The notes below the pieces were generated by a model, which searched no databases, had not been told where the DNA came from, and was given only the letters and a program-made list of their open reading frames with translations. This document shows, one piece after another, positions 12,641-61,888 of a stretch of 64,000 nucleotides of DNA (position 1 is the first letter of the stretch; every line of letters begins with the position of its first letter). Made by a program: the position numbers and the translations under genes. Origin of the DNA: an uncultured virus (IMG/VR IMGVR_UViG_3300032334_001252) (Duplodnaviria; Heunggongvirae; Uroviricota; Caudoviricetes); the IMG/VR virus record IMGVR_UViG_3300032334_001252. The stretch is one strand, 5' to 3'.

Positions 12641-15600
12641 TTAAGCGATAGAATATTCGCCTAAAACTAATCCGTAAGTTCCGTTTAAAGAGTAATCAGC
12701 CATATAGCGTACTTTAACCGTATGCCACCCAGCAGATAATGCCCTAGTCATTGCACCTGATGAAACATATCCACTTTCACCAATTCTATTAGTACTATAA
12801 CTACCACTTAGTCCGTGTGCTGGTACTAATCCTGTTGCTCCTCCGCTACCCTCTCCATTACCAGCAGTAGTTCCGTAATTAACTGTTGGCCACCAATTTT
12901 CATACATAGCAACATCATCTACAAAAATATAACCATAGTCATAATTAGATTCAGTACTTACTGTTAAGTAGCAAGTAATAGTACATGCTGCGCTTACATA
13001 AAATTGTCTGGTTACTGAATAGTCAAAATCGTATGTATTAAATGCATTAATACGAATACCATCATAAGTAGCATTAGGACTTGGAGTAGCGTAATAATAT
13101 GTACTATTAGGAACTCCAGTAGCAGATAAACTATAACTACTTACAGTTACACCTGCTGGAGCAGTATATCCGCATTTTCCTACAACTTGTCCTTGTGATA
13201 CATCATAGGTTCCACCACTACCATTAGCATAAGTATATATTAAAGTATTACCGCTGCAATATTCAGTTAATTTAGTTCCTGCGGATGGATAAACTCTATT
13301 AAAGTAAGTTTTTGTAGTATGTCCTGTATATGCAAATTTTGCAGCAAAATAGTGTGATCCTACACCAATGTCTGTACCTGCATTACTATTTGTCCAAGTA
13401 CCTGATCCGCCACCACCTGTTCCATCTATAGTAATAGCTGGCTGATGATAGGTTTCAGTATCAACACTCCAAGTAAAGGTATCACCTGGTTTAGCTCCAG
13501 TAATTGCTAAAACTACTCCGTCACCAACATAACTTTGATAAGGAGTAATAGTTACTTGTTCATTATATGTAACTACTGTAGGCGTTTGACTAGTATCATA
13601 TACTAAGAAAAATGCATAATTACTAGTTACATTATTATCATATACTTGTAAAAATAAATATCTAGGACTAGCTGTTTCTGTGCGTTGATTATTTGTTAAA
13701 TTAACAGTAATATAACCTTCGCCAGCACTATTTAAAGAAACAGTGCCTCCGCTTATACTAGAACCTGTAAAATCACTGCTAATAAAATCATATGGTGATC
13801 CAATATTTACAAACGGAAATCTATAATTAATAGTTGTATTTGCAGCATTAGTACTAGTTATATAAAAATATCCAGTTTCACCTTCATTCCTTGCATATGA
13901 GGTAGTAGTACTAACTGCAGGCGTATAATTAGCTGTTATACTATATGTTGGAGCTGCTGCACGTGGTGTCCAAGTTATACTTCTACTGTGTCCTGTAAAA
14001 TCAAATGTACAACTAAATGTATGAGTAGTTGTATTACCCGGTGCAGTAGTATAAGTAAATCCTCCAAGACTATTAATAGTACCCGTGCCAGAGCTATCAT
14101 AGTTATCTACATTCCATCGAATAGTATCGCCTGGTTTAGCACCACTAACATAAATTGTTACAGAGCTAGTAGTTGTATAAGGCTGACTATCACTAATAGA
14201 TATACTTTCATTTGGTGTTACACTACTATCTGTTACATAAACTGTAGATGCAGTACCTAAAGCTTGTAATAAACTTCCATTTCCACTAACATCTTTGTTA
14301 ATGGTCATTACAATAGTTTCTTGACTTTCAGTAGTATAGTCCTGTTTTAGTGTTCGGGTAAAAGTGCCTGTATTATTAACAATCTGTACTGTTCCATACG
14401 TATATGCGGTATAGCTATCACTAAAATCATTACTATCAACTGTACCTGTCATTGTCCAATATAAATTTGTATAATTGGGTACATTAGTACTATTTACAGT
14501 CCAAGTAACACTATCACCTTCATTAATGCTAGTAGTATTAGGTGTAATTGTTGCTGTTATGGTTGGTGCTTGACTAGTATCGGTAACTACTATGGACATT
14601 GATGCTTTTGTGGCGCCAGTATATCCGCCTGTTCTTAATTTAAACGTAATTGTTTCAGTGCCTTCGGTAGCAACGTCATTTTTAAGAAAAAACTGTAAGT
14701 GTTTTTCTAAACTATCTGGAAATGTAAATGTGCCTTGTAAACTTACAGTAATACTTTGATATGCTGGTAATCCAAAATCAATATCTTGTGTATTTGGATT
14801 ATAATAGCGCATATACTGAATATCATTAGTATCTATGCCTGTACCTTCTAAAGTCCAGAACATATTAGTACCATAACTATCCATTTCATACATAGCAATA
14901 TCTACCCACTGACCTTCACTATAAGTTTCAGTGGTTGAATTACCTAAATAATATGTAGCACCATTGGATGTATCATTAATATAAACTTTACCATTATAAT
15001 CAGCTACACGTGTACCAATTGGTTTATCTAGTGCTACTGAAAAATATTCTGTGCCTTCAAACAAATTATCTGCCGTCATGGTAACAGTAAAACTGCTAAT
15101 GCCATAATTAATTACTACACCACTATTAACACCATTAACAAAAAAATTATTACCACTAGCATCAGTTGCAACAATATCTGCTACACCTGCAGTAGCTGGA
15201 TTAACTAACGAAGGATATACACGTGTACCATCAGGTGCATTACTAGTTATATAAAAAGTTACTGAACTACCTTCGTCTACATAAACATCGCCTGTTTGTT
15301 GATTAGCTCTAGTAATAGAGTATGTATAAACTGGCGCTAAACTAGTGTCGTTAATTCTTCCGCTTAAATAAATAGTGCTAACACTTGGTATTGTAATTCT
15401 AAAATACTCATAACCTTCGGTTTTTTGATCCGCTGTTATTACCATTGTCAAATCTGCAGTACCAGTAGAAGTGCCACTAGTGTTAACTGTAAAGTTACCT
15501 GTTAAACCATATTGCGATCCAAAAATATCATCAGCATCTATCATTACACTTTCGTTACCTGGCTCTGCAACTATTTGAAAGGGTATTACTGTACCATTAG

Positions 15601-17065
15601 TCACATTTCTAGTAGTTAATCTGGCAACTGCTGTTATACCCTCATTATAAGCACCGCTTGAATTTGGCGATACCCAAGCTAAACTATAAGTTTTAAACTC
15701 TTTAATACTTACAGATATTGAAGCTTTTTGAGTATTATTTGAATCATATACTGTAAATGTAAAAGTTTCCGTACCTTCTAATATATTATCATTTGCTACA
15801 GTAAAATTAAATATGGCTGTACCATTATAGACTGTAATATATCCACTAAATGCTGGTGTAAAACTTTGACCACTACCACCTCTATAACCATCTATCATAT
15901 CACTAAAATCTGAAGTGGTAATATTAGTGCCACTAATAGTAAAAGGCACTATTGTACCACTAGTCACACCGCTAACATAAAGGTATATACTTTGATTATA
16001 CATAGGAGTAGTTGATGCAGATGGCTCCTGCTCATAAATATCATCAGTATTTCTTAATTGTAGTGTGTAAGTTGCTGGTAATGGTTGACTTTGATAACCT
16101 CTATCTAATGGGCCTGTATCTAGTATTAATATATCTGCTGAGTATGTGTCTAATCCATAGTTTGTATTGCTGCCACTAGTTACTTTTAAACCTTTGGTTA
16201 AATAAGTGCTTTGATAAATACCAAATGTACTAGCACTTAAATTTCCATAATAGTCTGTGTCTATATTTCTTGCTCTAAGAGTATTACTTTGACGTTGGAA
16301 AAATACTCTTGAACCATATAATTGAGCAGTATTAGTGCTACTGTTATATTGATAACGATCAAAAGTTGTTTTAGGTATTAAAAATCCTGTATTGTTTGGT
16401 GTTGGACTATTAATAGCTGTTTCATAAACATATGCACTAGCCAAATATGGTCCTACAAAATTTGGATCAATAATAGGTAACGATGGTGATTTAAAAGAAT
16501 AAGATTCTAATTCAATATGTTGATATGCTGAACTATATGTACACTGTCCATTAGGATCATAAACTTGTATTCCATAGCCACTATTAGCCGCCGTAGGATT
16601 ACCAGTAGCATAAAAGTATACTTTAGGAATAGCTGCACTAATATCACTACTATTAGCTGTAGCACTCCAACTTCTTGGAACCATTGCATATATACTAAAT
16701 ATTGGTCTACCATTTTCGTATTCGGCAATACCTTGTCCAGCACCTTGTGTTAAAGAATATGGACCAGTTTTAGTACTATACCAAATATGATTAGTACTAC
16801 CTTCTGGTAGTGTATATATTACAAAACAAGCTTGTCCGCTAGGTGCATAATATTTTAATTCATAAACATCCCAAGTTTCTGCAGGACTACCATACCCTAC
16901 ATCCAATCTAGGTTGATTTTGAAGAATTTGAGTAAATTGTGAAGTTACGTCAACATTACTGTAATTTAAACCAATTTGTGAATCAGTAATATACCAAGGT
17001 TTAACTTGTGTATCATCAATAACAAGATTATTGTTATCATTATAAAATTTAAATCCGTATGTCAT
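12641..17065 (-). CDS. large tail tip/receptor-binding protein with Calx-beta/Ig-like repeats
   Basis: YGF/YGIQ N-terminal motifs; ~6 repeats of EG...F......D...EG.E.F...I.DTS. Confidence 0.7.
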   Translation of the reverse strand: MTYGFKFYNDNNNLVIDDTQVKPWYITDSQIGLNYSNVDVTSQFTQILQNQPRLDVGYGSPAETWDVYELKYYAPSGQACFVIYTLPEGSTNHIWYSTKTGPYSLTQGAGQGIAEYENGRPIFSIYAMVPRSWSATANSSDISAAIPKVYFYATGNPTAANSGYGIQVYDPNGQCTYSSAYQHIELESYSFKSPSLPIIDPNFVGPYLASAYVYETAINSPTPNNTGFLIPKTTFDRYQYNSSTNTAQLYGSRVFFQRQSNTLRARNIDTDYYGNLSASTFGIYQSTYLTKGLKVTSGSNTNYGLDTYSADILILDTGPLDRGYQSQPLPATYTLQLRNTDDIYEQEPSASTTPMYNQSIYLYVSGVTSGTIVPFTISGTNITTSDFSDMIDGYRGGSGQSFTPAFSGYITVYNGTAIFNFTVANDNILEGTETFTFTVYDSNNTQKASISVSIKEFKTYSLAWVSPNSSGAYNEGITAVARLTTRNVTNGTVIPFQIVAEPGNESVMIDADDIFGSQYGLTGNFTVNTSGTSTGTADLTMVITADQKTEGYEYFRITIPSVSTIYLSGRINDTSLAPVYTYSITRANQQTGDVYVDEGSSVTFYITSNAPDGTRVYPSLVNPATAGVADIVATDASGNNFFVNGVNSGVVINYGISSFTVTMTADNLFEGTEYFSVALDKPIGTRVADYNGKVYINDTSNGATYYLGNSTTETYSEGQWVDIAMYEMDSYGTNMFWTLEGTGIDTNDIQYMRYYNPNTQDIDFGLPAYQSITVSLQGTFTFPDSLEKHLQFFLKNDVATEGTETITFKLRTGGYTGATKASMSIVVTDTSQAPTITATITPNTTSINEGDSVTWTVNSTNVPNYTNLYWTMTGTVDSNDFSDSYTAYTYGTVQIVNNTGTFTRTLKQDYTTESQETIVMTINKDVSGNGSLLQALGTASTVYVTDSSVTPNESISISDSQPYTTTSSVTIYVSGAKPGDTIRWNVDNYDSSGTGTINSLGGFTYTTAPGNTTTHTFSCTFDFTGHSRSITWTPRAAAPTYSITANYTPAVSTTTSYARNEGETGYFYITSTNAANTTINYRFPFVNIGSPYDFISSDFTGSSISGGTVSLNSAGEGYITVNLTNNQRTETASPRYLFLQVYDNNVTSNYAFFLVYDTSQTPTVVTYNEQVTITPYQSYVGDGVVLAITGAKPGDTFTWSVDTETYHQPAITIDGTGGGGSGTWTNSNAGTDIGVGSHYFAAKFAYTGHTTKTYFNRVYPSAGTKLTEYCSGNTLIYTYANGSGGTYDVSQGQVVGKCGYTAPAGVTVSSYSLSATGVPNSTYYYATPSPNATYDGIRINAFNTYDFDYSVTRQFYVSAACTITCYLTVSTESNYDYGYIFVDDVAMYENWWPTVNYGTTAGNGEGSGGATGLVPAHGLSGSYSTNRIGESGYVSSGAMTRALSAGWHTVKVRYMADYSLNGTYGLVLGEYSIA

Positions 17066-44025: not shown

Positions 44026-44352
44026 ATGCAAAACCTTAACGATTACATTAAATTTTTGGGCTTAACAAAACCTGTTGTTGTGCGTATCAATTCACGCACA
44101 CACAAGGCATGGGATGGTTACTACATCGCACGCTATAACAACAAGGGTAAGCTAGCAGAACATCGCATTACTGTATACTTGCAAGATCAAAGCAGGGACT
44201 TTAACACTATACTTGCACATGAGCTAATTCACGCATGGCAAGAAGAAAATGGGCATACAGAATTTCACGGCAAAGAATTTAAACGAATTGCTCGCAAAAT
44301 GGAAAAGTCTTTTGGTCTGGTAAATATTTACATAAAAGGGACTGATGTCTAA
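44026..44352 (+). CDS. SprT-like zinc metalloprotease
   Basis: LAHELIHAWQ...HGKEF. Confidence 0.75.
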   Translation: MQNLNDYIKFLGLTKPVVVRINSRTHKAWDGYYIARYNNKGKLAEHRITVYLQDQSRDFNTILAHELIHAWQEENGHTEFHGKEFKRIARKMEKSFGLVNIYIKGTDV

Positions 44353-47671: not shown

Positions 47672-47740
47672 GGCGCCAATTTTATCACATAAAATTGGTC
47701 GCTGTCAATAGGTATTTTCCCTAATGTTGTATTTTTGCAC
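47672..47740. repeat. pre-early intergenic repeat copy 5
   Basis: GGCGCCAATTTTAT-CAC-ATAAAATTGG..TGTCAATAGGTATTTTCCCTAATGTTGTATTTTTGCA. Confidence 0.9.
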
Positions 47741-47780
47741 AGACTGGTTTTTTCGTGATTTTTCGGGTATAATTTCAGAC

Positions 47781-48158
47781 ATGGACAGACAGAAATTAGA
47801 ATTGAGATTAAATAGCAAATGTGAAAGCATTTGGGAAACCCTTGCCGAAATGCATGGTAGACTGGTGCGCTTCAATCCGCCAAAAATTGTGCTAGATGCT
47901 AGATTTTGGCGCACTGCGGGAATGTGTCACCAAGACGAAAATTTTATTCGACTAGGCTATAAATTTTTCTTGCACTCGCAAAATTATTGTGATACAATGG
48001 TAAAAATTATTTTACCGCATGAGATCATTCACCAAGCCGATTTTAATCTTTTTGGCGAGAGCGAAAAAAATTGTGGTCATGGCAAAAATTGGTGTAATCT
48101 TATGGTACAATATGGGCTTAAACCCGAAAAGCATCACTCAATGGACATTAAACGATGA
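47781..48158 (+). CDS. SprT-like zinc metalloprotease (second copy)
   Basis: TAG, PHEIIH, HGKNW...M...G; ATG 7 nt after TATAAT. Confidence 0.8.
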   Translation: MDRQKLELRLNSKCESIWETLAEMHGRLVRFNPPKIVLDARFWRTAGMCHQDENFIRLGYKFFLHSQNYCDTMVKIILPHEIIHQADFNLFGESEKNCGHGKNWCNLMVQYGLKPEKHHSMDIKR

Positions 48159-48394: not shown

Positions 48395-48715
48395 ATGAAA
48401 GCATTGAACTACACTCCAGAGCAAACGCTCGCAATGGTTGCCGATTATCAAAACGGCGTTTCTGTAGAACAAATTGCCGAAACACTTGGCAAAACTGTTC
48501 GTTCAGTTGTTGCAAAATTGAGCCGTGAAAAGGTTTATAAGGCTAAAGAATATATTTCTAAAACTGGCGAAAAACCAGTTAAAAAAGATGTTCATGCCGA
48601 TGCAATTGGCGCAATTTTGCGACTAAATGAAAATGATATTGAATCGCTTACTAAAGCAAATAAAAATGCTCTCAAAGCAATTTTTGATGCATTGGCAAAT
48701 TCAAAGCCAATTTAA
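48395..48715 (+). CDS. T5 A2/D3-like DNA-binding protein (paralog 2)
   Basis: Closely similar to 43650 ORF (NYTPEQT...KLSREKVY...KKDVHAD). Confidence 0.8.
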   Translation: MKALNYTPEQTLAMVADYQNGVSVEQIAETLGKTVRSVVAKLSREKVYKAKEYISKTGEKPVKKDVHADAIGAILRLNENDIESLTKANKNALKAIFDALANSKPI

Positions 48716-48798
48716 AATTATATAACATAATTTTAATAACCCTGCAAATTGCAGGGTTATTTTTTAGCTTAATAACCCTACAACCCGTAGGGTTATTT

Positions 48799-48870
48799 GC
48801 GCCAAAATTATAACATAATTTTGGGGCGCGTGTCAATAGGTACTTTCCCTAATGTTGGCAAAAAACAACA
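48799..48870. repeat. pre-early intergenic repeat copy 6
   Basis: GCGCCAAAATTAT-AAC-ATAATTTTGG..TGTCAATAGGTACTTTCCCTAATGTTG. Confidence 0.88.
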
Positions 48871-48966: not shown

Positions 48967-48976
48967 CAGCAAAAAG

Positions 48977-49028
48977 TTATCCACAGGTTATCCACAGAGG
49001 GCAAAAAGTTATCCACAGCTTATCCACA
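48977..49028 (+). promoter_or_regulatory. four perfect DnaA boxes
   Basis: TTATCCACA at 48977, 48988, 49009 and 49020. Confidence 0.9.
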
Positions 49029-49222
49029 GCAGCAGCGCTGCTGCGCCAGTGCAAAAGTGGGAAAGTGGGAAATTTTGAGGTACCGCGTGCGCCCATTATA
49101 TAGTGTAAAACCTAATTTGTCAAGTGTATTTTCGATTCAGGTTGCCTCAAGTGCAAAAATAATCTCTTGATCGATTTTGCAGAATTTTGTATAATTTATA
49201 TATTGATGGAAAGGAAACTGAG

Positions 49223-49406: not shown

Positions 49407-49715
49407 ATGATGACTGACAAAACTGTAAACTATACCCCTGAGCAAACTCAGCAACTCGTGCAAGCCTACCAAGACGGCCAAAGCGTAGAAACTTTGGCAA
49501 TGCAATTGGGTCGTAGCACTCGTAGCATTGTTGCTAAACTGTCACGCGAAGGCGTGTACAAAGCAAAGAGCAAAGCCAGTGGCGTTGCTCGTGTCAAGAA
49601 GGCTGACCTTGTTGACCAGATCGCTAACCGTTGCGGTGTAGCTCCAGAGATTTTCGAATCTCTCGAAAAAGCCAACCACGAAGTGTTGGAAGCAATTGTC
49701 GCTAACTTGCGTTGA
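49407..49715 (+). CDS. T5 A2/D3-like DNA-binding protein (paralog 3)
   Basis: VNYTPEQT...RSIVAKLSREGVY...ESLEKAN. Confidence 0.8.
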   Translation: MMTDKTVNYTPEQTQQLVQAYQDGQSVETLAMQLGRSTRSIVAKLSREGVYKAKSKASGVARVKKADLVDQIANRCGVAPEIFESLEKANHEVLEAIVANLR

Positions 49716-49781
49716 TTGTTACGGTTGGGGGTCAAAAAATATTAACTTGATCTCCAGCCCCTTTTCATGTATAATTATTCT

Positions 49782-49917
49782 ATAAACAGTCGGGAAGGGC
49801 TTAATGAATACCACAGCAATGTGGTGCCCGTCTGCACAAGAACACTTACTCAACCTTTGACAAAAACTATTAGTCTCTTACGTAAGGTAGTCTAGTTGCA
49901 ACGACTGTTATTTTTTA
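49782..49917 (+). ncRNA. candidate ~130-nt structured small RNA
   Basis: Promoter TTGATC-17-TATAAT (49747-49775); closing stem AACAGTCG/CGACTGTT followed by T-run; internal ACCACA-GCAA-TGTGGT hairpin. Confidence 0.55.
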
Positions 49918-50276
49918 CTTGAAAGTTTAAATCAATTAGCGTATAATTGATATATAGATTGGGTGGACAGCGGTCACTAAGCTAAACATAGTGATACGTC
50001 CTTAATTGTACAAAAGCTACTCACCGAGCTACAGCCCCAAGCTAAAATTATCTATAAATTAGTGTTATCAAGGTATCGTGTGCAGACGTGTACACTATTC
50101 GGGTCCCATCAGCCAGAGGCGGATCCTGATATAACTGCTTGGCGTAGGGAGGCTTAGCGGCTTGTCCCAAAATTGGCAAGATAACATTAATTTATGGGTA
50201 AATCGAGACCAGCTCTATGCGTAACTGGATAAATTTTTAATTGCGACTGAATGACTCTGGTTGCAGCCCGTTTAAA

Positions 50277-50378
50277 CACCTCTGATGAGTACCCTGGGAT
50301 GGGACGAAACTCTAAACCTTGAGGCAACTTTGCTGAGTATTCCCCATACACACGGTTGCATCGGTTTAGGGTCAGGTG
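50277..50378 (+). ncRNA. type I hammerhead ribozyme
   Basis: Stem I CACCU/AGGUG; CUGAUGA; stem II GU(A)CCC/GGGAC; GAAA; stem III ACUCUAAACC/GGUUUAGGGU; GUC cleavage triplet ending 50373. Confidence 0.85.
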
Positions 50379-50791
50379 AAAGAACACCATAAAATACAGC
50401 TATCTTCTAACCAAGAACTGGGTTCACCCAGCAATGTGAGTATGGAATCTTACTAGCGATTGAATAGTGTTGCGCAAACTATTCTATTAATAGCGCACCC
50501 CGACCCTAAACTGCAGAGGGGTCGCAAAAAATTGTCTGCAGGCGCTAAGCACTGAAACTGTAAGCCGACAAAGCCCAAAGTCGATAAAAATGTGGTGGGC
50601 AGTAGTGCCGAACCAATACTGTTAGTCACGGATATCCCGACGACCTTATATGGCAACTGTGGACTGAAACGTGCAGCTTACCTAAATTAGAGCAGACTCC
50701 AATTCACCACTGGCTAAGGCTTTTACCAATTTAGGGTCAGGTAGCTGTGGTGGCTTAAAAATCCTGTTGTGAGCAAAAAACTTCTAGAGTT

Positions 50792-50831
50792 CAAAACCCC
50801 GTACACGTAATGGTGACGGGGTTTTGTTTTT
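50792..50831 (+). terminator. intrinsic terminator
   Basis: CAAAACCCCGT...ACGGGGTTTTG followed by T5. Confidence 0.8.
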
Positions 50832-50955
50832 GGAGCTTGCTGCGCCATTATACCATAGTGCCAAAACTACTGTCAAGTGCGTTTTCAATAACTTGACCCT
50901 AAACCGCAACAATTTGACCGAATTCACGGCACCCGCGACCAATTGTGTGAAGACG

Positions 50956-50994
50956 CAAAAAAGCCTACTTAACTCACATTAAGTAGGCTTTTGT
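50956..50994. terminator. bidirectional terminator after D3-like gene
   Basis: AAAAGCCTACTTAA...TTAAGTAGGCTTTT. Confidence 0.8.
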
Positions 50995-51013
50995 GTTTTT
51001 GGGGCCAATTTGC

Positions 51014-51325
51014 TCAGTTTAGGGTCGATTCTTGCAGTTTAAGTTCAATTAACTTAAGCACCTGCTTATTAACCTTTTCCAAGCTCTCCAACATCTCTTC
51101 GTCGCACCCTAGCAGTGTGGCGATGGTGGCAATATGAGCTGACTTCTTAATTGGCACCTCACCACGCTTGTTGACATACTGCTTTTTGTGGTAGACGCCC
51201 AGAGAGCTCAATTTAGCAATCACACTGCGTTCTGGCACGTCTAAGGTGGTAGCTAGTGTGGCTACAGGAGTTCCACTTTTGTACTGTTCGATCAAATTGT
51301 CTGTAATTTCTTTTGTGTATTTCAT
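51014..51325 (-). CDS. T5 D3/A2-like DNA-binding protein (paralog 4)
   Basis: MKYTKEIT...RSVIAKLSSLGVY...ESLEKVN; follows D2-like gene. Confidence 0.75.
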   Translation of the reverse strand: MKYTKEITDNLIEQYKSGTPVATLATTLDVPERSVIAKLSSLGVYHKKQYVNKRGEVPIKKSAHIATIATLLGCDEEMLESLEKVNKQVLKLIELKLQESTLN

Positions 51326-52101
51326 AATAACCAAGGTAGTTCTGTTTCTAGTGTTTGACTTTTTGTAGCCAATTGTTGTACAGGTTCAGGCTTTTTAAAC
51401 ACATCATGCGGAATTATAGGTTCTGGCATTAAGTCCCAATTGTTGGGATCTAAGATCATGAGTTGATCTCTATGTTTGGGATGTGCTAACCAAATCTGAC
51501 ACAACATAGTTTGTGTTAGTTTAGGAAGATGACCAATCTCAGTATCTTGGATTCCTGTAAGACTCCAAGTACTTTCAGCAGGCTTTTGTTGGCCTGCCTT
51601 TGACCCACTTCTTTGAGTGAGCCCTTGCGTTCTAATTTCCAATAATCTTTCTGACCCTAAATCGCTATAAACCACATCCAATGCAGCCATCAATTCAGGT
51701 TCTAAAATCCACTCCAAATTATTTAGTCCACGCCACTCACTATAACTGATACCTTGATATAATTTTATACCAGCTAAAATTAGTGGAGTAAGACTACTAT
51801 ACTTAGGATTTGCAATTTGCTTTGCGACTAATAAACTTCTCTTGATTCTAGTCAATTTCCACAATTCCTGCTGTTTAGGGTCACTGCAGTTATGTTTTAG
51901 TGTAGCTAAAACATCAATACAACCACTAGGGCCATACATAACCGACCACCTGCCAAAGTTGCCAACAAGTTGGGGCAGCAGCCAAGATTCAAAGCGGTTT
52001 AACTTGTTGTCTTCAGCCCAAAAGTTTAGTTGTTTATCTTGTAGTTTAACAATCTCTTTTAAGTCCAAATATTCAATATCTTGTTTTTTAATTTGTATCA
52101 T
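51322..52101 (-). CDS. T5 D2-like protein
   Basis: C-terminal QIWLA...MILDPNNWD.MPE resembles T5 D2 (from memory); D2-D3 order conserved. Confidence 0.6.
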   Translation of the reverse strand: MIQIKKQDIEYLDLKEIVKLQDKQLNFWAEDNKLNRFESWLLPQLVGNFGRWSVMYGPSGCIDVLATLKHNCSDPKQQELWKLTRIKRSLLVAKQIANPKYSSLTPLILAGIKLYQGISYSEWRGLNNLEWILEPELMAALDVVYSDLGSERLLEIRTQGLTQRSGSKAGQQKPAESTWSLTGIQDTEIGHLPKLTQTMLCQIWLAHPKHRDQLMILDPNNWDLMPEPIIPHDVFKKPEPVQQLATKSQTLETELPWLL

Positions 52102-52130
52102 ATTTTTAAGCGTAGTATTCCTATTTATAG

Positions 52131-52260
52131 GGACTAGTGGATAATCCTAAACGACTTGACCCTAAATTGCAGAAACACACGCTTACGGGAACCCTCGTTG
52201 GAATCGTCCCATATCGAAATGTTTCTGCATTAGACTCTGTCTTTTGAATTCCACTAGTCC
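52131..52260 (-). ncRNA. rod-shaped structured RNA / 5' leader of D2-like gene
   Basis: GGACTAGTGGA/TCCACTAGTCC outer stem, TGCAGAAACA/TGTTTCTGCA inner stem; minus-strand promoter at ~52283-52312. Confidence 0.5.
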
Positions 52261-52437
52261 TTAACTTTTTAAGTTATACTAAATTATATCATAACGGGCA
52301 AATAGTTGGCAAGCTAATTTTTTAGTGAGCAGGTAATTCGTGATTTTTGTAAATCGTAGTTACAAATTTTGTGAATTATAATTATTATAACAGGTTGGGT
52401 GTTATTTAGCAAGTGTTTTAGTGCGGTAGCGGTGCAT

Positions 52438-52791
52438 TTACTTTAGTAATTGTTTTGCCTTGGTGGTAATGTTTTGCTGTGATTTTGTCAAGTCAATGTA
52501 ACCTAGGCTTTCAAGCACTGCTATGATAGCTAATGTATCTTCCAGTTCTGCTACTAAATCTTCCAAATTGGTGGTAGTTCTGTCTGGATGTTTATTGTTG
52601 GCCCCAAACCGCCTAATCTTGCTAACTGCCTGAATGCATTCAGCAGACTCTTCCTGCAATTTGTCTAGTAGGTAATTAGTTTGTGCTTCACGAATTGTGG
52701 TAGGTTGTAACAGTGGTTGTTCTTTAGGTATGTCTTTAATTTGTTCTGGTTTATAATTCATAAGGTCTTGCATTGGAGTAGTATGCATCAT
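52438..52791 (-). CDS. MazG-like NTP pyrophosphohydrolase
   Basis: QEESAE.IQAVSK..RFG...ELED. Confidence 0.7.
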   Translation of the reverse strand: MMHTTPMQDLMNYKPEQIKDIPKEQPLLQPTTIREAQTNYLLDKLQEESAECIQAVSKIRRFGANNKHPDRTTTNLEDLVAELEDTLAIIAVLESLGYIDLTKSQQNITTKAKQLLK

Positions 52792-52984
52792 AGGTGGTTT
52801 CCAATGATGACTAGTGTTAGTGAAATGAGTGTGATTAAGTTAATGGCAACAGCTACCACAAATATGGTTGCCGCTGCTACTATAAGTTGTTTGTAGTCTG
52901 GAGGCATTATAATTCCTTTTTTGTAAATTATATTATAGCACAAATACAAAAAGGATTCAAGTGCAGAGACTTGAATCCTTTTTA

Positions 52985-53140
52985 TTACTTAGGTTTCCGT
53001 TTAGGTCGATCAGGATTAGCTTCCACATCTTGCGGCAGTTTAGGGTCGAAAGTACCTGGCTTTGGTTTAGGTTGATTGTTAGGTACTGTTTCTGGTGGAT
53101 TAATGTGTTGAATAGGTTTATTAGGATCAGGTTTAGCCAT
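52985..53140 (-). CDS. 51-aa Pro-rich peptide
   Basis: GGAG RBS; MAKPDPNKPIQHINPP...KRKPK. Confidence 0.5.
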   Translation of the reverse strand: MAKPDPNKPIQHINPPETVPNNQPKPKPGTFDPKLPQDVEANPDRPKRKPK

Positions 53141-61811: not shown

Positions 61812-61888
61812 CTGTCCTTAGCTCAGTTGGATAGAGCATCGGTCTTCTACACCGTTGGTCGGGGGTTCGAATCCCTCAGGGCAGGCCA
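61812..61888 (+). tRNA. tRNA-Arg(TCT)
   Basis: Cloverleaf; anticodon loop CT-TCT-AC; TTCGAAT; CCA end. Confidence 0.93.

Follow-up and report, generated by a model that had tools for sequence, protein, structure and literature searches.

A subfamily of type I hammerhead ribozymes within a conserved non-coding RNA unit of uncultured phages of about 100 kb

Hammerhead ribozymes occur in polycistronic transcripts of phages and prophages, and for the cases drawn upon here it has been proposed that they divide these transcripts into separate RNAs; one example, from a halovirus, has a mapped 5' end at most 3 nucleotides (nt) from the hammerhead cut site (Perreault et al. 2011, PMC3088659). Another class of small self-cleaving RNAs, the theta ribozymes, which are of the hepatitis delta virus (HDV)-like type, has been described next to phage transfer RNAs (tRNAs) (Kienbeck et al. 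2024, PMC10879173). The idea of phage hammerheads as transcript cutters is already in print (PMC3088659), and the role of bacterial and phage hammerheads in general is still largely open. The stretch analysed here, called the window in the following, comprises 64,000 nt of an uncultured freshwater virus of the Caudoviricetes (IMG/VR record IMGVR_UViG_3300032334_001252) and carries on its plus strand, at positions 50277-50378, a complete type I hammerhead, all elements of which can be read from the sequence. This hammerhead is probably active and, on balance, would give a phage non-coding RNA operon a built-in site for its processing. Like the hammerheads of PMC3088659, it is phage-borne and a proposed cutter of a long transcript into separate RNAs, and unlike those examples, which flank protein genes, it lies in a non-coding unit of about 0.9 kb with no open reading frame (ORF) on either side. 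A literature search for hammerheads within phage non-coding RNA operons found none, which is no proof of absence. New are a subfamily, with 55 distinct sequences, that is borne by uncultured phages of about 100 kb; the conservation in it of a stem III built in two tiers and bearing a C-rich loop; its place in a non-coding unit that runs from promoter to terminator, occasionally with a tRNA-Glu; and the frozen sequence of the cut-site strand, which is at the same time a genomic box. The subfamily offers a clean case for the question of function: a single ribozyme sits in a short, well-bounded non-coding unit that is highly conserved, occurs in dozens of uncultured phages with genomes of about 100 kb and has a metatranscriptome signal.

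An initial annotation of the window, made from its letters alone, had called a type I hammerhead here, and its element coordinates all match the sequence base for base. Stem I is formed by CACCU (50277-50281; CCU invariant in all 55 distinct members of the family) and AGGUG (50374-50378; AGG invariant) and encloses the catalytic core CUGAUGA (C3 to A9, 50282-50288), stem II with its loop (GU(A)CCC-UGGGAU-GGGAC, 50289-50305; five pairs, A50291 bulged), the core nucleotides G12, A13 and A14 together with A15.1 (GAAA, 50306-50309, invariant), and stem III (50309-50372). Both CUGAUGA and the GAA at 50306-08 are invariant in 16 of 16 aligned sequences. The proximal part of stem III has ten pairs, one of them G.U, which are A50309-U50372 plus CUCUAAACC/GGUUUAGGG as far as C50318-G50363; an internal loop, a distal helix (GCAAC 50324-28 with GUUGC 50355-59) and a C-rich terminal loop (UCCCC, 50341-45) follow. 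The insert of about 40 nt that had been noted in this ten-pair stem is indeed present, with 44 nt (50319-50362). Stem I is open to the flanks and stems II and III are capped by loops, which is the type I topology. The G10.1-C11.1 closing pair is G50289-C50305 and is G-C in 55 of 55 members, the A15.1-U16.1 pair is A50309-U50372 and is likewise present in all 55, and the N1.1-N2.1 pair is A50374-U50281, with U-A in 52 of the 55 members and G-C in the other three. Hammerheads cleave 3' of the H in an N-U-H triplet; the triplet here is G50371, U50372 and C50373, in which H17 is not G, and the scissile bond on the plus strand is therefore predicted between C17 (50373) and A1.1 (50374). Next to it, at 50375-50388, a predicted hairpin GGUG-AAAGAA-CACC can be read from the sequence, which would capture the 3' strand of stem I.

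Judged by every sequence and structure feature that could be assessed, the Rfam score excepted, the element belongs to the hammerhead class. With the type I hammerheads of Rfam (RF00163, CL00010) it shares the canonical core, the pairs G10.1-C11.1 and A15.1-U16.1, the GUC triplet, the open stem I and the capped stems II and III; unlike RF00163, the family has a stem III insert of 26-44 nt with a second helix and a C-rich loop, a very short stem I and an invariant cut-site strand, and the Rfam score of the window's element is below gathering. In isolation, the segment 50270-50385 has a minimum free energy fold (-31.6 kcal/mol) that is exactly the hammerhead three-way junction, with 20 of 20 expected pairs at pair probabilities of 0.92-0.97 and an added GUUU/GAAC extension of stem I beyond an AAA/AAA internal loop. 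The energy itself says little, with a z-score of only -1.25 and 26 of 200 shuffles folding as well, and a loose core pattern turns up in 21 of 100 shuffles. It is homology and not energy that excludes a chance origin.

True homologues were found via conserved blocks of the surrounding RNA. A blastn search with 49700-51400 against 50,697 phage records gave no match, searches of the same records with the related locus L019 and with the compact hammerhead locus L010 gave none either, the nearest viral record (G001) does not cover the ribozyme locus, and the exact 29-nt core is absent from viral contigs. By way of the RNA blocks, one viral homologue was found, L019, which carries the ribozyme, and the downstream RNA block led to 18 metagenome loci, of which 16 have a hammerhead at the homologous place; in the remaining two the sequence upstream is only 169 nt long. 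A search pattern made for the ribozyme yielded 41 further viral loci, many of them on contigs of 97-104 kb, and in bacterial and archaeal genomes only one 1-kb contig binned into a metagenome-assembled genome, which is not informative on the host; the downstream RNA block had no match there. The genomes of the ribozyme-bearing relatives have 97-104 kb and are rated as 92-100% complete, and three of them have direct terminal repeats. Three candidates were set aside: L017 and L018, reached via a neighbouring protein of 259 amino acids (aa), come from contigs that end before the ribozyme, and L020 is a chance match in coding sequence. On one viral contig of 100,412 nt the hammerhead locus lies near both ends (L059 and L075), and therefore within or beside a terminal repeat in that phage.

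The conservation of the structure was assessed in two ways. A covariance model built from 15 homologues, with the window left out, matches the window at 50268-50388 on the plus strand with 65.6 bits (E 1.5e-16), as its sole match in the 64 kb on both strands. The alignment of the 15 distinct homologous sequences with the window (16 sequences), tested against the hammerhead structure, has 80.9% of its cells paired, as opposed to 28-38% after a shift of the 3' partner by 1-3 columns, and changes on both sides are found in 13 of 25 pairs, which is reached in none of 500 shuffles; in stem II, 98.7% of the cells are paired and four of five pairs covary. Running the model over 70 sources gave 65 matches with 55 distinct sequences, and as their alignment is fitted to the model it leans towards the structure, a bias of which the test with 16 sequences is free. 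In this larger set, 85.2% of the cells are paired (27-42% slid), 22 of 27 pairs have compensatory changes, and 193 cells are changed on both sides, compared with at most 44 in the slid controls. Stem II is again almost completely paired (98% of cells, compensatory changes in four of five pairs), the distal helix of stem III covaries in seven of seven pairs, the two-tier architecture is kept in the relatives, and by eye most members have the C-rich loop. Across the family the core does not vary, and neither do the first pairs of each stem; the two outer pairs of stem I covary, yet are unpaired in many members. Core identity, topology and covariation thus all bear out the type I call. An RNAalifold prediction on the raw alignment, which paired the invariant CUGAUG with GUCAGG, was set aside because none of those pairs vary.

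A degenerate core pattern additionally revealed 16 viral loci with compact type I hammerheads that sit between a stop codon and the next gene. Six of these (L002, L005, L010, L011, L014 and L016) have the same core as the window and a near-identical stem II (GUACCCUGNGAUGGGAC), and their stem I, AACCU/AGGUU, is similar to that of the window; unlike the window, they have a short hairpin as stem III and lie directly between a stop codon and the following gene. The compact hammerheads are not homologous in locus, and the family model gives them 33-35 bits as against 65.6 for the window.

That the ribozyme resides in a phage non-coding locus, as had been stated from the start, is correct: the window contains phage genes, the ribozyme lies in an ORF-poor stretch, and the unit is conserved in relatives. 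PHROGs identify a terminase, a portal protein, a capsid/protease protein, a major tail protein and giant tail-fibre-like proteins, and the terminase shares about 50% identity with its counterpart in Vibrio phages of about 113-118 kb. The ribozyme is inside a 1.3-kb stretch (49716-51013) without credible ORFs between convergent genes, and a stop-free frame across the ribozyme is found in 24 of 44 cases on either strand, about chance level for 100 nt. Within this stretch a non-coding unit from promoter to terminator (about 49955-50831), with flanking RNA blocks, is conserved in relatives. It is preceded on the plus strand by a promoter-like sequence, P2 (49919-49947; TTGAAA, 17 nt, TATAAT; 11 of 12 in a consensus scan), and in the aligned loci of the relatives TTGA...TATAAT recurs at the corresponding position. 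The transcript with the ribozyme probably starts from P2, a putative promoter, at about 49954; a scan for sigma-70-like promoters on the plus strand of 50000-50400 called none that could provide an alternative start. A conserved 5' domain without a long ORF (49955-50276, plus strand, alignment of 10 loci) follows, in which two modules of the form UUAAU-hairpin-GCCC can be seen by eye in the alignment, the second at about 50238-50270. Downstream of the ribozyme, the predicted 3' cleavage product (50374-50831, plus strand) is a conserved structured RNA with conserved blocks and covarying hairpins, which includes a module at 50392-50465, hairpins with box copies at about 50498-50600 and a conserved domain at 50615-50790. 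The unit closes with a hairpin like that of an intrinsic terminator, AAAACCCCGU/ACGGGGUUUU followed by UUUUGUUUUU (50793-50831, plus strand), and hairpin and U-tract are present in 16 of 16 relatives.

Parts of the locus are present in 20 public runs, six of which are metatranscriptomes. Four runs were read as assembled, unstranded contigs, with 27 of 126 pieces listed, and such contigs end where strains vary as much as where RNAs end. Contig depth in RNA run X4 is 0-1.6 over 50003-50337, 51 over 50338-50404, 8-10 over 50472-50605, 104-271 over 50606-50739 (up to 271 at 50673-50739) and 28 over 50740-50806, and it is 0 beyond 50807, as is also the case in X10 and X12. The predicted 3' product is thus covered at a depth of 8-271, as compared with 0-5 in the flanking genes. 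The first X4 contig past the cut site has 86 nt and covers 50376-50459, an X12 contig covers 50170-50358, and among the 27 of 126 pieces listed no RNA contig bridges 50373/50374. In DNA run X1, which may be the sample that the window comes from, depth is flat (40-300) and a contig spans the cut site (50052-50421). The depth step at the cut site fits cleavage followed by loss of the leader and is a weak hint in this direction. The suggestion of the initial annotation that the ribozyme would process the long transcript into separate RNAs agrees with this hint and with the anatomy of the element. The contig ends at 50735 and at 50658-61 were not relied on as RNA ends because contig breaks follow strain variation.

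In the proposed course of events, host RNA polymerase would start at the conserved sigma-70-type promoter P2 (-10 at 49942-47) and transcribe a structured leader of about 320 nt and then the ribozyme. Upon emergence of 50378, the three-way junction would be the most stable nascent fold, and the 2'-OH of C50373 would attack its 3' phosphate. This would leave a 5' fragment (about 49954-50373) ending in a 2',3'-cyclic phosphate, along with a 3' fragment of about 458 nt that would begin with a 5'-OH at A50374 and extend as far as the terminator (50793-50831). Once freed, the 3' strand of stem I would refold with downstream bases (GGUG/CACC), and as in the full-length RNA the UUUAGGGUC strand would rather pair elsewhere, cutting would be confined to a short co-transcriptional window. 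The modules of the 3' fragment would accumulate as stable RNA, in which the 5'-OH end may have a stabilising role, and the leader with the spent ribozyme would be lost. Folds of the nascent RNA from about 49955, which are thermodynamic predictions that ignore tertiary contacts and kinetics, have 20 of 20 hammerhead pairs with the 3' end at 50378, 10 of 20 with 3' ends at 50390-50460, and 5 of 20 with 3' ends at or beyond 50520. Since the hammerhead pairs are lost once the transcript lengthens, we infer that the cut would occur co-transcriptionally within a short window. By eye, the competing partners are probably CACC 50385-88 for GGUG 50375-78 (the presumed identity of the competing hairpin) and GACCCUAAAC at 50502-11 for the cut-site strand, and most relatives have, immediately 3' of stem I, a CCCCUAG that is able to pair with the UUAGGG in the cut-site strand.

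Several points speak against an active ribozyme that processes this RNA, besides the nature of the RNA contigs. Equilibrium folds of longer RNAs give stems I and III a probability near 0, and by these models RNA that misses the window would stay uncut. Stem I is short, with three invariant pairs, and its fourth pair is unpaired in 20 of 53 members and its fifth in 32 of 51. A search for complementarity of loop II to the flanks in 17 sequences, in four rows of which stem II was clipped too short, found partners that differ in place between members, and the short stem I together with no consistent tertiary partner of loop II may point against a fast ribozyme. A transcription start at the box that overlaps the cut site would give the same step in RNA depth as cleavage. 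Finally, the best Rfam hammerhead match, and the only one at permissive thresholds, is with a type III model, Hammerhead_3, at 21 bits (gathering 48.5) and E 0.12, and its alignment covers only the core and stem II and leaves the model's own stem III unpaired.

Rfam at gathering thresholds finds in the window only two tRNAs, at 61812 and 62148, and the hammerhead search that the initial annotation had proposed as a check therefore came back negative at that score. In 12 loci with compact phage type I hammerheads scanned at E of at most 0.01, only three had a hammerhead match, all below gathering (Hammerhead_1 with 27.7 and 26.8 bits, gathering 34; Hammerhead_3 with 29.3, gathering 48.5). Because these compact phage hammerheads also fall below the gathering score, the Rfam miss at the window is not informative; it reflects the model and the long stem III insert, and Rfam hammerhead models miss real phage hammerheads with large inserts in stem III.

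Cutting may be modulated by stem III, which is long and conserved. It is quite doubtful that the ribozyme is a regulated switch, in which the long stem III and its C-rich loop bind a factor or a distant G-rich RNA and thereby choose between the hammerhead and a competing fold. The covarying distal helix, the recurrence of the stem III extension and a YUCCCA-like loop in the family (by eye), the competing folds that are predicted to win at equilibrium, and the potential of CCCCUAG 3' of stem I to pair with UUAGGG in most relatives would all suit such a switch, but no ligand or partner has been identified, the loop is CUUCAAU-like in a subset of the members, and the folds are predicted without regard to tertiary structure and kinetics.

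The statement of the initial annotation that the ribozyme is not next to a tRNA holds for the window, where the nearest tRNA lies at 61812 and none is found within 11 kb, and does not hold for relatives, in which a tRNA-Glu(UUC) adjoins the homologous ribozyme. In L022 (1991-2065), L042 (2101-2175), L053 (2101-2175) and L056 (1924-1998) this tRNA, with an encoded CCA, ends right at the start of stem I, in L059, L067 and L075 it lies about 95 nt upstream of the ribozyme, and L028 and L029 have inserts of about 90 nt at the tRNA slot, neither of which is called by ARAGORN or Rfam. By eye, the insert of L028 looks like a tRNA with a 9-nt anticodon loop. On account of these tRNAs and inserts it is conceivable, if unlikely, that the ribozyme serves the upstream RNA by giving a uniform cyclic-phosphate 3' end to the leader or to a tRNA-bearing precursor and by uncoupling it from what lies downstream. 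The cut is about 100 nt 3' of the tRNA end, however, and the ribozyme therefore cannot make a mature tRNA 3' end; the window itself has no tRNA at this place, the two inserts escape both tRNA searches, and in X4 it is the upstream part that is missing. There is a parallel to the theta ribozymes (PMC10879173), as both are small self-cleaving classes in the context of stable phage RNAs, with the hammerhead abutting a tRNA in some relatives. The fold differs, though, being that of a hammerhead and not an HDV-like double pseudoknot, and so does the position of the cut, which is not at the tRNA 3' end as for the theta ribozymes.

The strand that is cut is under an additional constraint. At 50365-50376 on the plus strand, the sequence TTTAGGGTCAGG, which overlaps the 3' strand of stem III, the GUC triplet and the start of stem I, is a copy of a repeated box, and the ribozyme cut-site strand UUAGGGUC|AGG, which corresponds to this box copy, is invariant in all members. 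The strand opposite UUAGGGUC in stem III varies by one-sided changes, for example from C-G to U-G or from A-U to G-U, and as the cut-site strand is frozen while its partner varies, a second constraint must act on the cut-site strand. In the window there are 11 exact copies of TTTAGGGTC, all between 50365 and 63226 and on both strands, and with at most one mismatch there are 28 matches, compared with a mean of 12.4 in shuffles, none of which reaches 28. The box was seen across the related loci L017-L080 and in G002, G004 and G005, and in related loci, which span 3-6 kb, the 8-nt core TTAGGGTC occurs 6-12 times per locus. The consensus from 340 distinct instances is an asymmetric box of about 22 nt, RnTTgCtrCRGT-TTAGGGTC-AG. 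Complete relatives have 12-14 exact copies (0-2 for a reversed control) that are dispersed and clustered at the RNA locus; outside this locus their orientation is regionally consistent. Nine successive box copies of the window (50365-53047) alternate in orientation.

The box opens the view, which appears unlikely, that the downstream RNA arises mainly by fresh transcription from the cut-site box and that the hammerhead is secondary or a back-up for the same 5' end. An asymmetric box with many more copies than its control and a consistent orientation outside the RNA locus could be a promoter, and RNA depth steps up right at the box. Against this, no -10-like element occurs at a fixed distance from the box in the 340 instances, and no T7-type RNA polymerase was found in five near-complete relatives by a search that had no positive control; the copies lie in both orientations within the RNA locus and antisense inside genes, RNA depth drops instead of rising at the second plus-strand copy (50730), and the ribozyme stems covary, which is not required of a mere promoter. 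Processing by the hammerhead and a function of the box may also coexist: as a tentative and rather speculative idea, one DNA stretch could have two jobs, being a genome-wide box, probably read by a phage DNA-binding or transcription factor, and at the same time the substrate strand of the hammerhead; in combination with competing folds that allow cutting only briefly during transcription, this would turn the ribozyme into a timed or factor-controlled gate that sets the amount of a stable, partly tRNA-like RNA to be released. Candidate readers of the box, by position only, are three paralogous helix-turn-helix (HTH) proteins of about 105 aa that are encoded next to the non-coding loci (48395-48715 and 49407-49715 on the plus strand, 51014-51334 on the minus strand), with the latter two genes flanking the 1.3-kb stretch. 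Their PHROG matches are to 'D5-like' regulator and DNA-binding families; in Pfam, GcrA and sigma-70 region 4 match them weakly.

A second TTTAGGGTCAGGT, a 13-mer identical to the cut site, is found at 50730-50742 on the plus strand, and all 16 of the 16 relatives aligned have it. It pairs, as 3' strand, with CCUAAA 50681-86 in a hairpin of its own and is not accompanied by a ribozyme core, of which the window holds only one. It is highly improbable that the same core docks also on this second UUUAGGGUC|AGGU site and frees a 365-nt RNA (50374-50738) with hammerhead-type ends that could circularise. The identity and the strict conservation of the two sites would agree with such docking, several relatives have just the three invariant stem I pairs also at the first site, and four X4 contigs end at 50732-50735. 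In the L019 type, however, stem I has covaried to match the first site (UCCU/AGGA) rather than the second (AGGU), X10 contigs span the second site (50625-50766 and 50661-50766), no back-joined contig is reported among the RNA pieces listed, and the second site has no A15.1 and is engaged in the hairpin of its own. Viroid-like or retrozyme-like circular units are likewise not what is seen here, given the single core and the X10 contigs that cross the second site, and a second cut or a circular RNA is thus unlikely.

Further features surround the hammerhead-processed unit proposed here. Upstream of P2, a promoter-like sequence P1 (49747-49775, plus strand) is followed by a short conserved RNA of the form CAGUCGGGAAGGGCUUAAUGAAUACC-hairpin-GGUGCCCGUCUGC (49747-49900), a region that is covered at a depth of 10-27 in X4 (contigs over 49735-50002). 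The module at 50392-50465 (plus strand) starts 18 nt past the cut site, and 18 distinct versions of it were collected. It contains a single strand, UCUUCUAACCAAGA, that is invariant, and two hairpins that covary, of which the second has a loop, UAUGGAAU, like a T-loop; the module is closed by a GCUA/URGC stem and is tRNA-like by eye. The domain at 50615-50790 (plus strand) is the most conserved and most abundant part of the RNA and has no Rfam match; it consists of invariant GUUAGUCACGGAUAUCC and GGACUGAAACGUGCA around a variable hairpin (CACG/CGUG, UCC/GGA), followed by a CCUAAA...UUUAGG hairpin. Permissive Rfam searches of the surrounding RNA gave chance-level matches to SNORA58, SmY, RefA9 and SpF66 and no consistent family across the relatives.

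On the minus strand, sites like sigma-70 promoters with 12 of 12 consensus positions are found at 50876..50847, 49123..49095 and 48836..48807. Of these, the site at 50876 is also found in relatives; a copy of the box lies about 18 nt upstream of its -35, and its direction is straight towards the bidirectional terminator hairpin. At 48969-49029, four consensus DnaA-box sequences (TTATCCACA) are arranged in two 29-nt direct repeats, which adjoin two terminator-like hairpins (48735-48797) and strong promoter-like sites, and this region may be a replication or DnaA-titrating region. The minus strand of 4734-32092 has five consecutive ORFs of 1474-1547 aa, the first of which matches tail-fibre families, and the ORF at 12641-17065 (minus strand) has no PHROG match. 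Upstream of the RNA locus, two proteins with SprT-like metalloprotease domains are encoded on the plus strand at 44026-44352 and 47724-48158.

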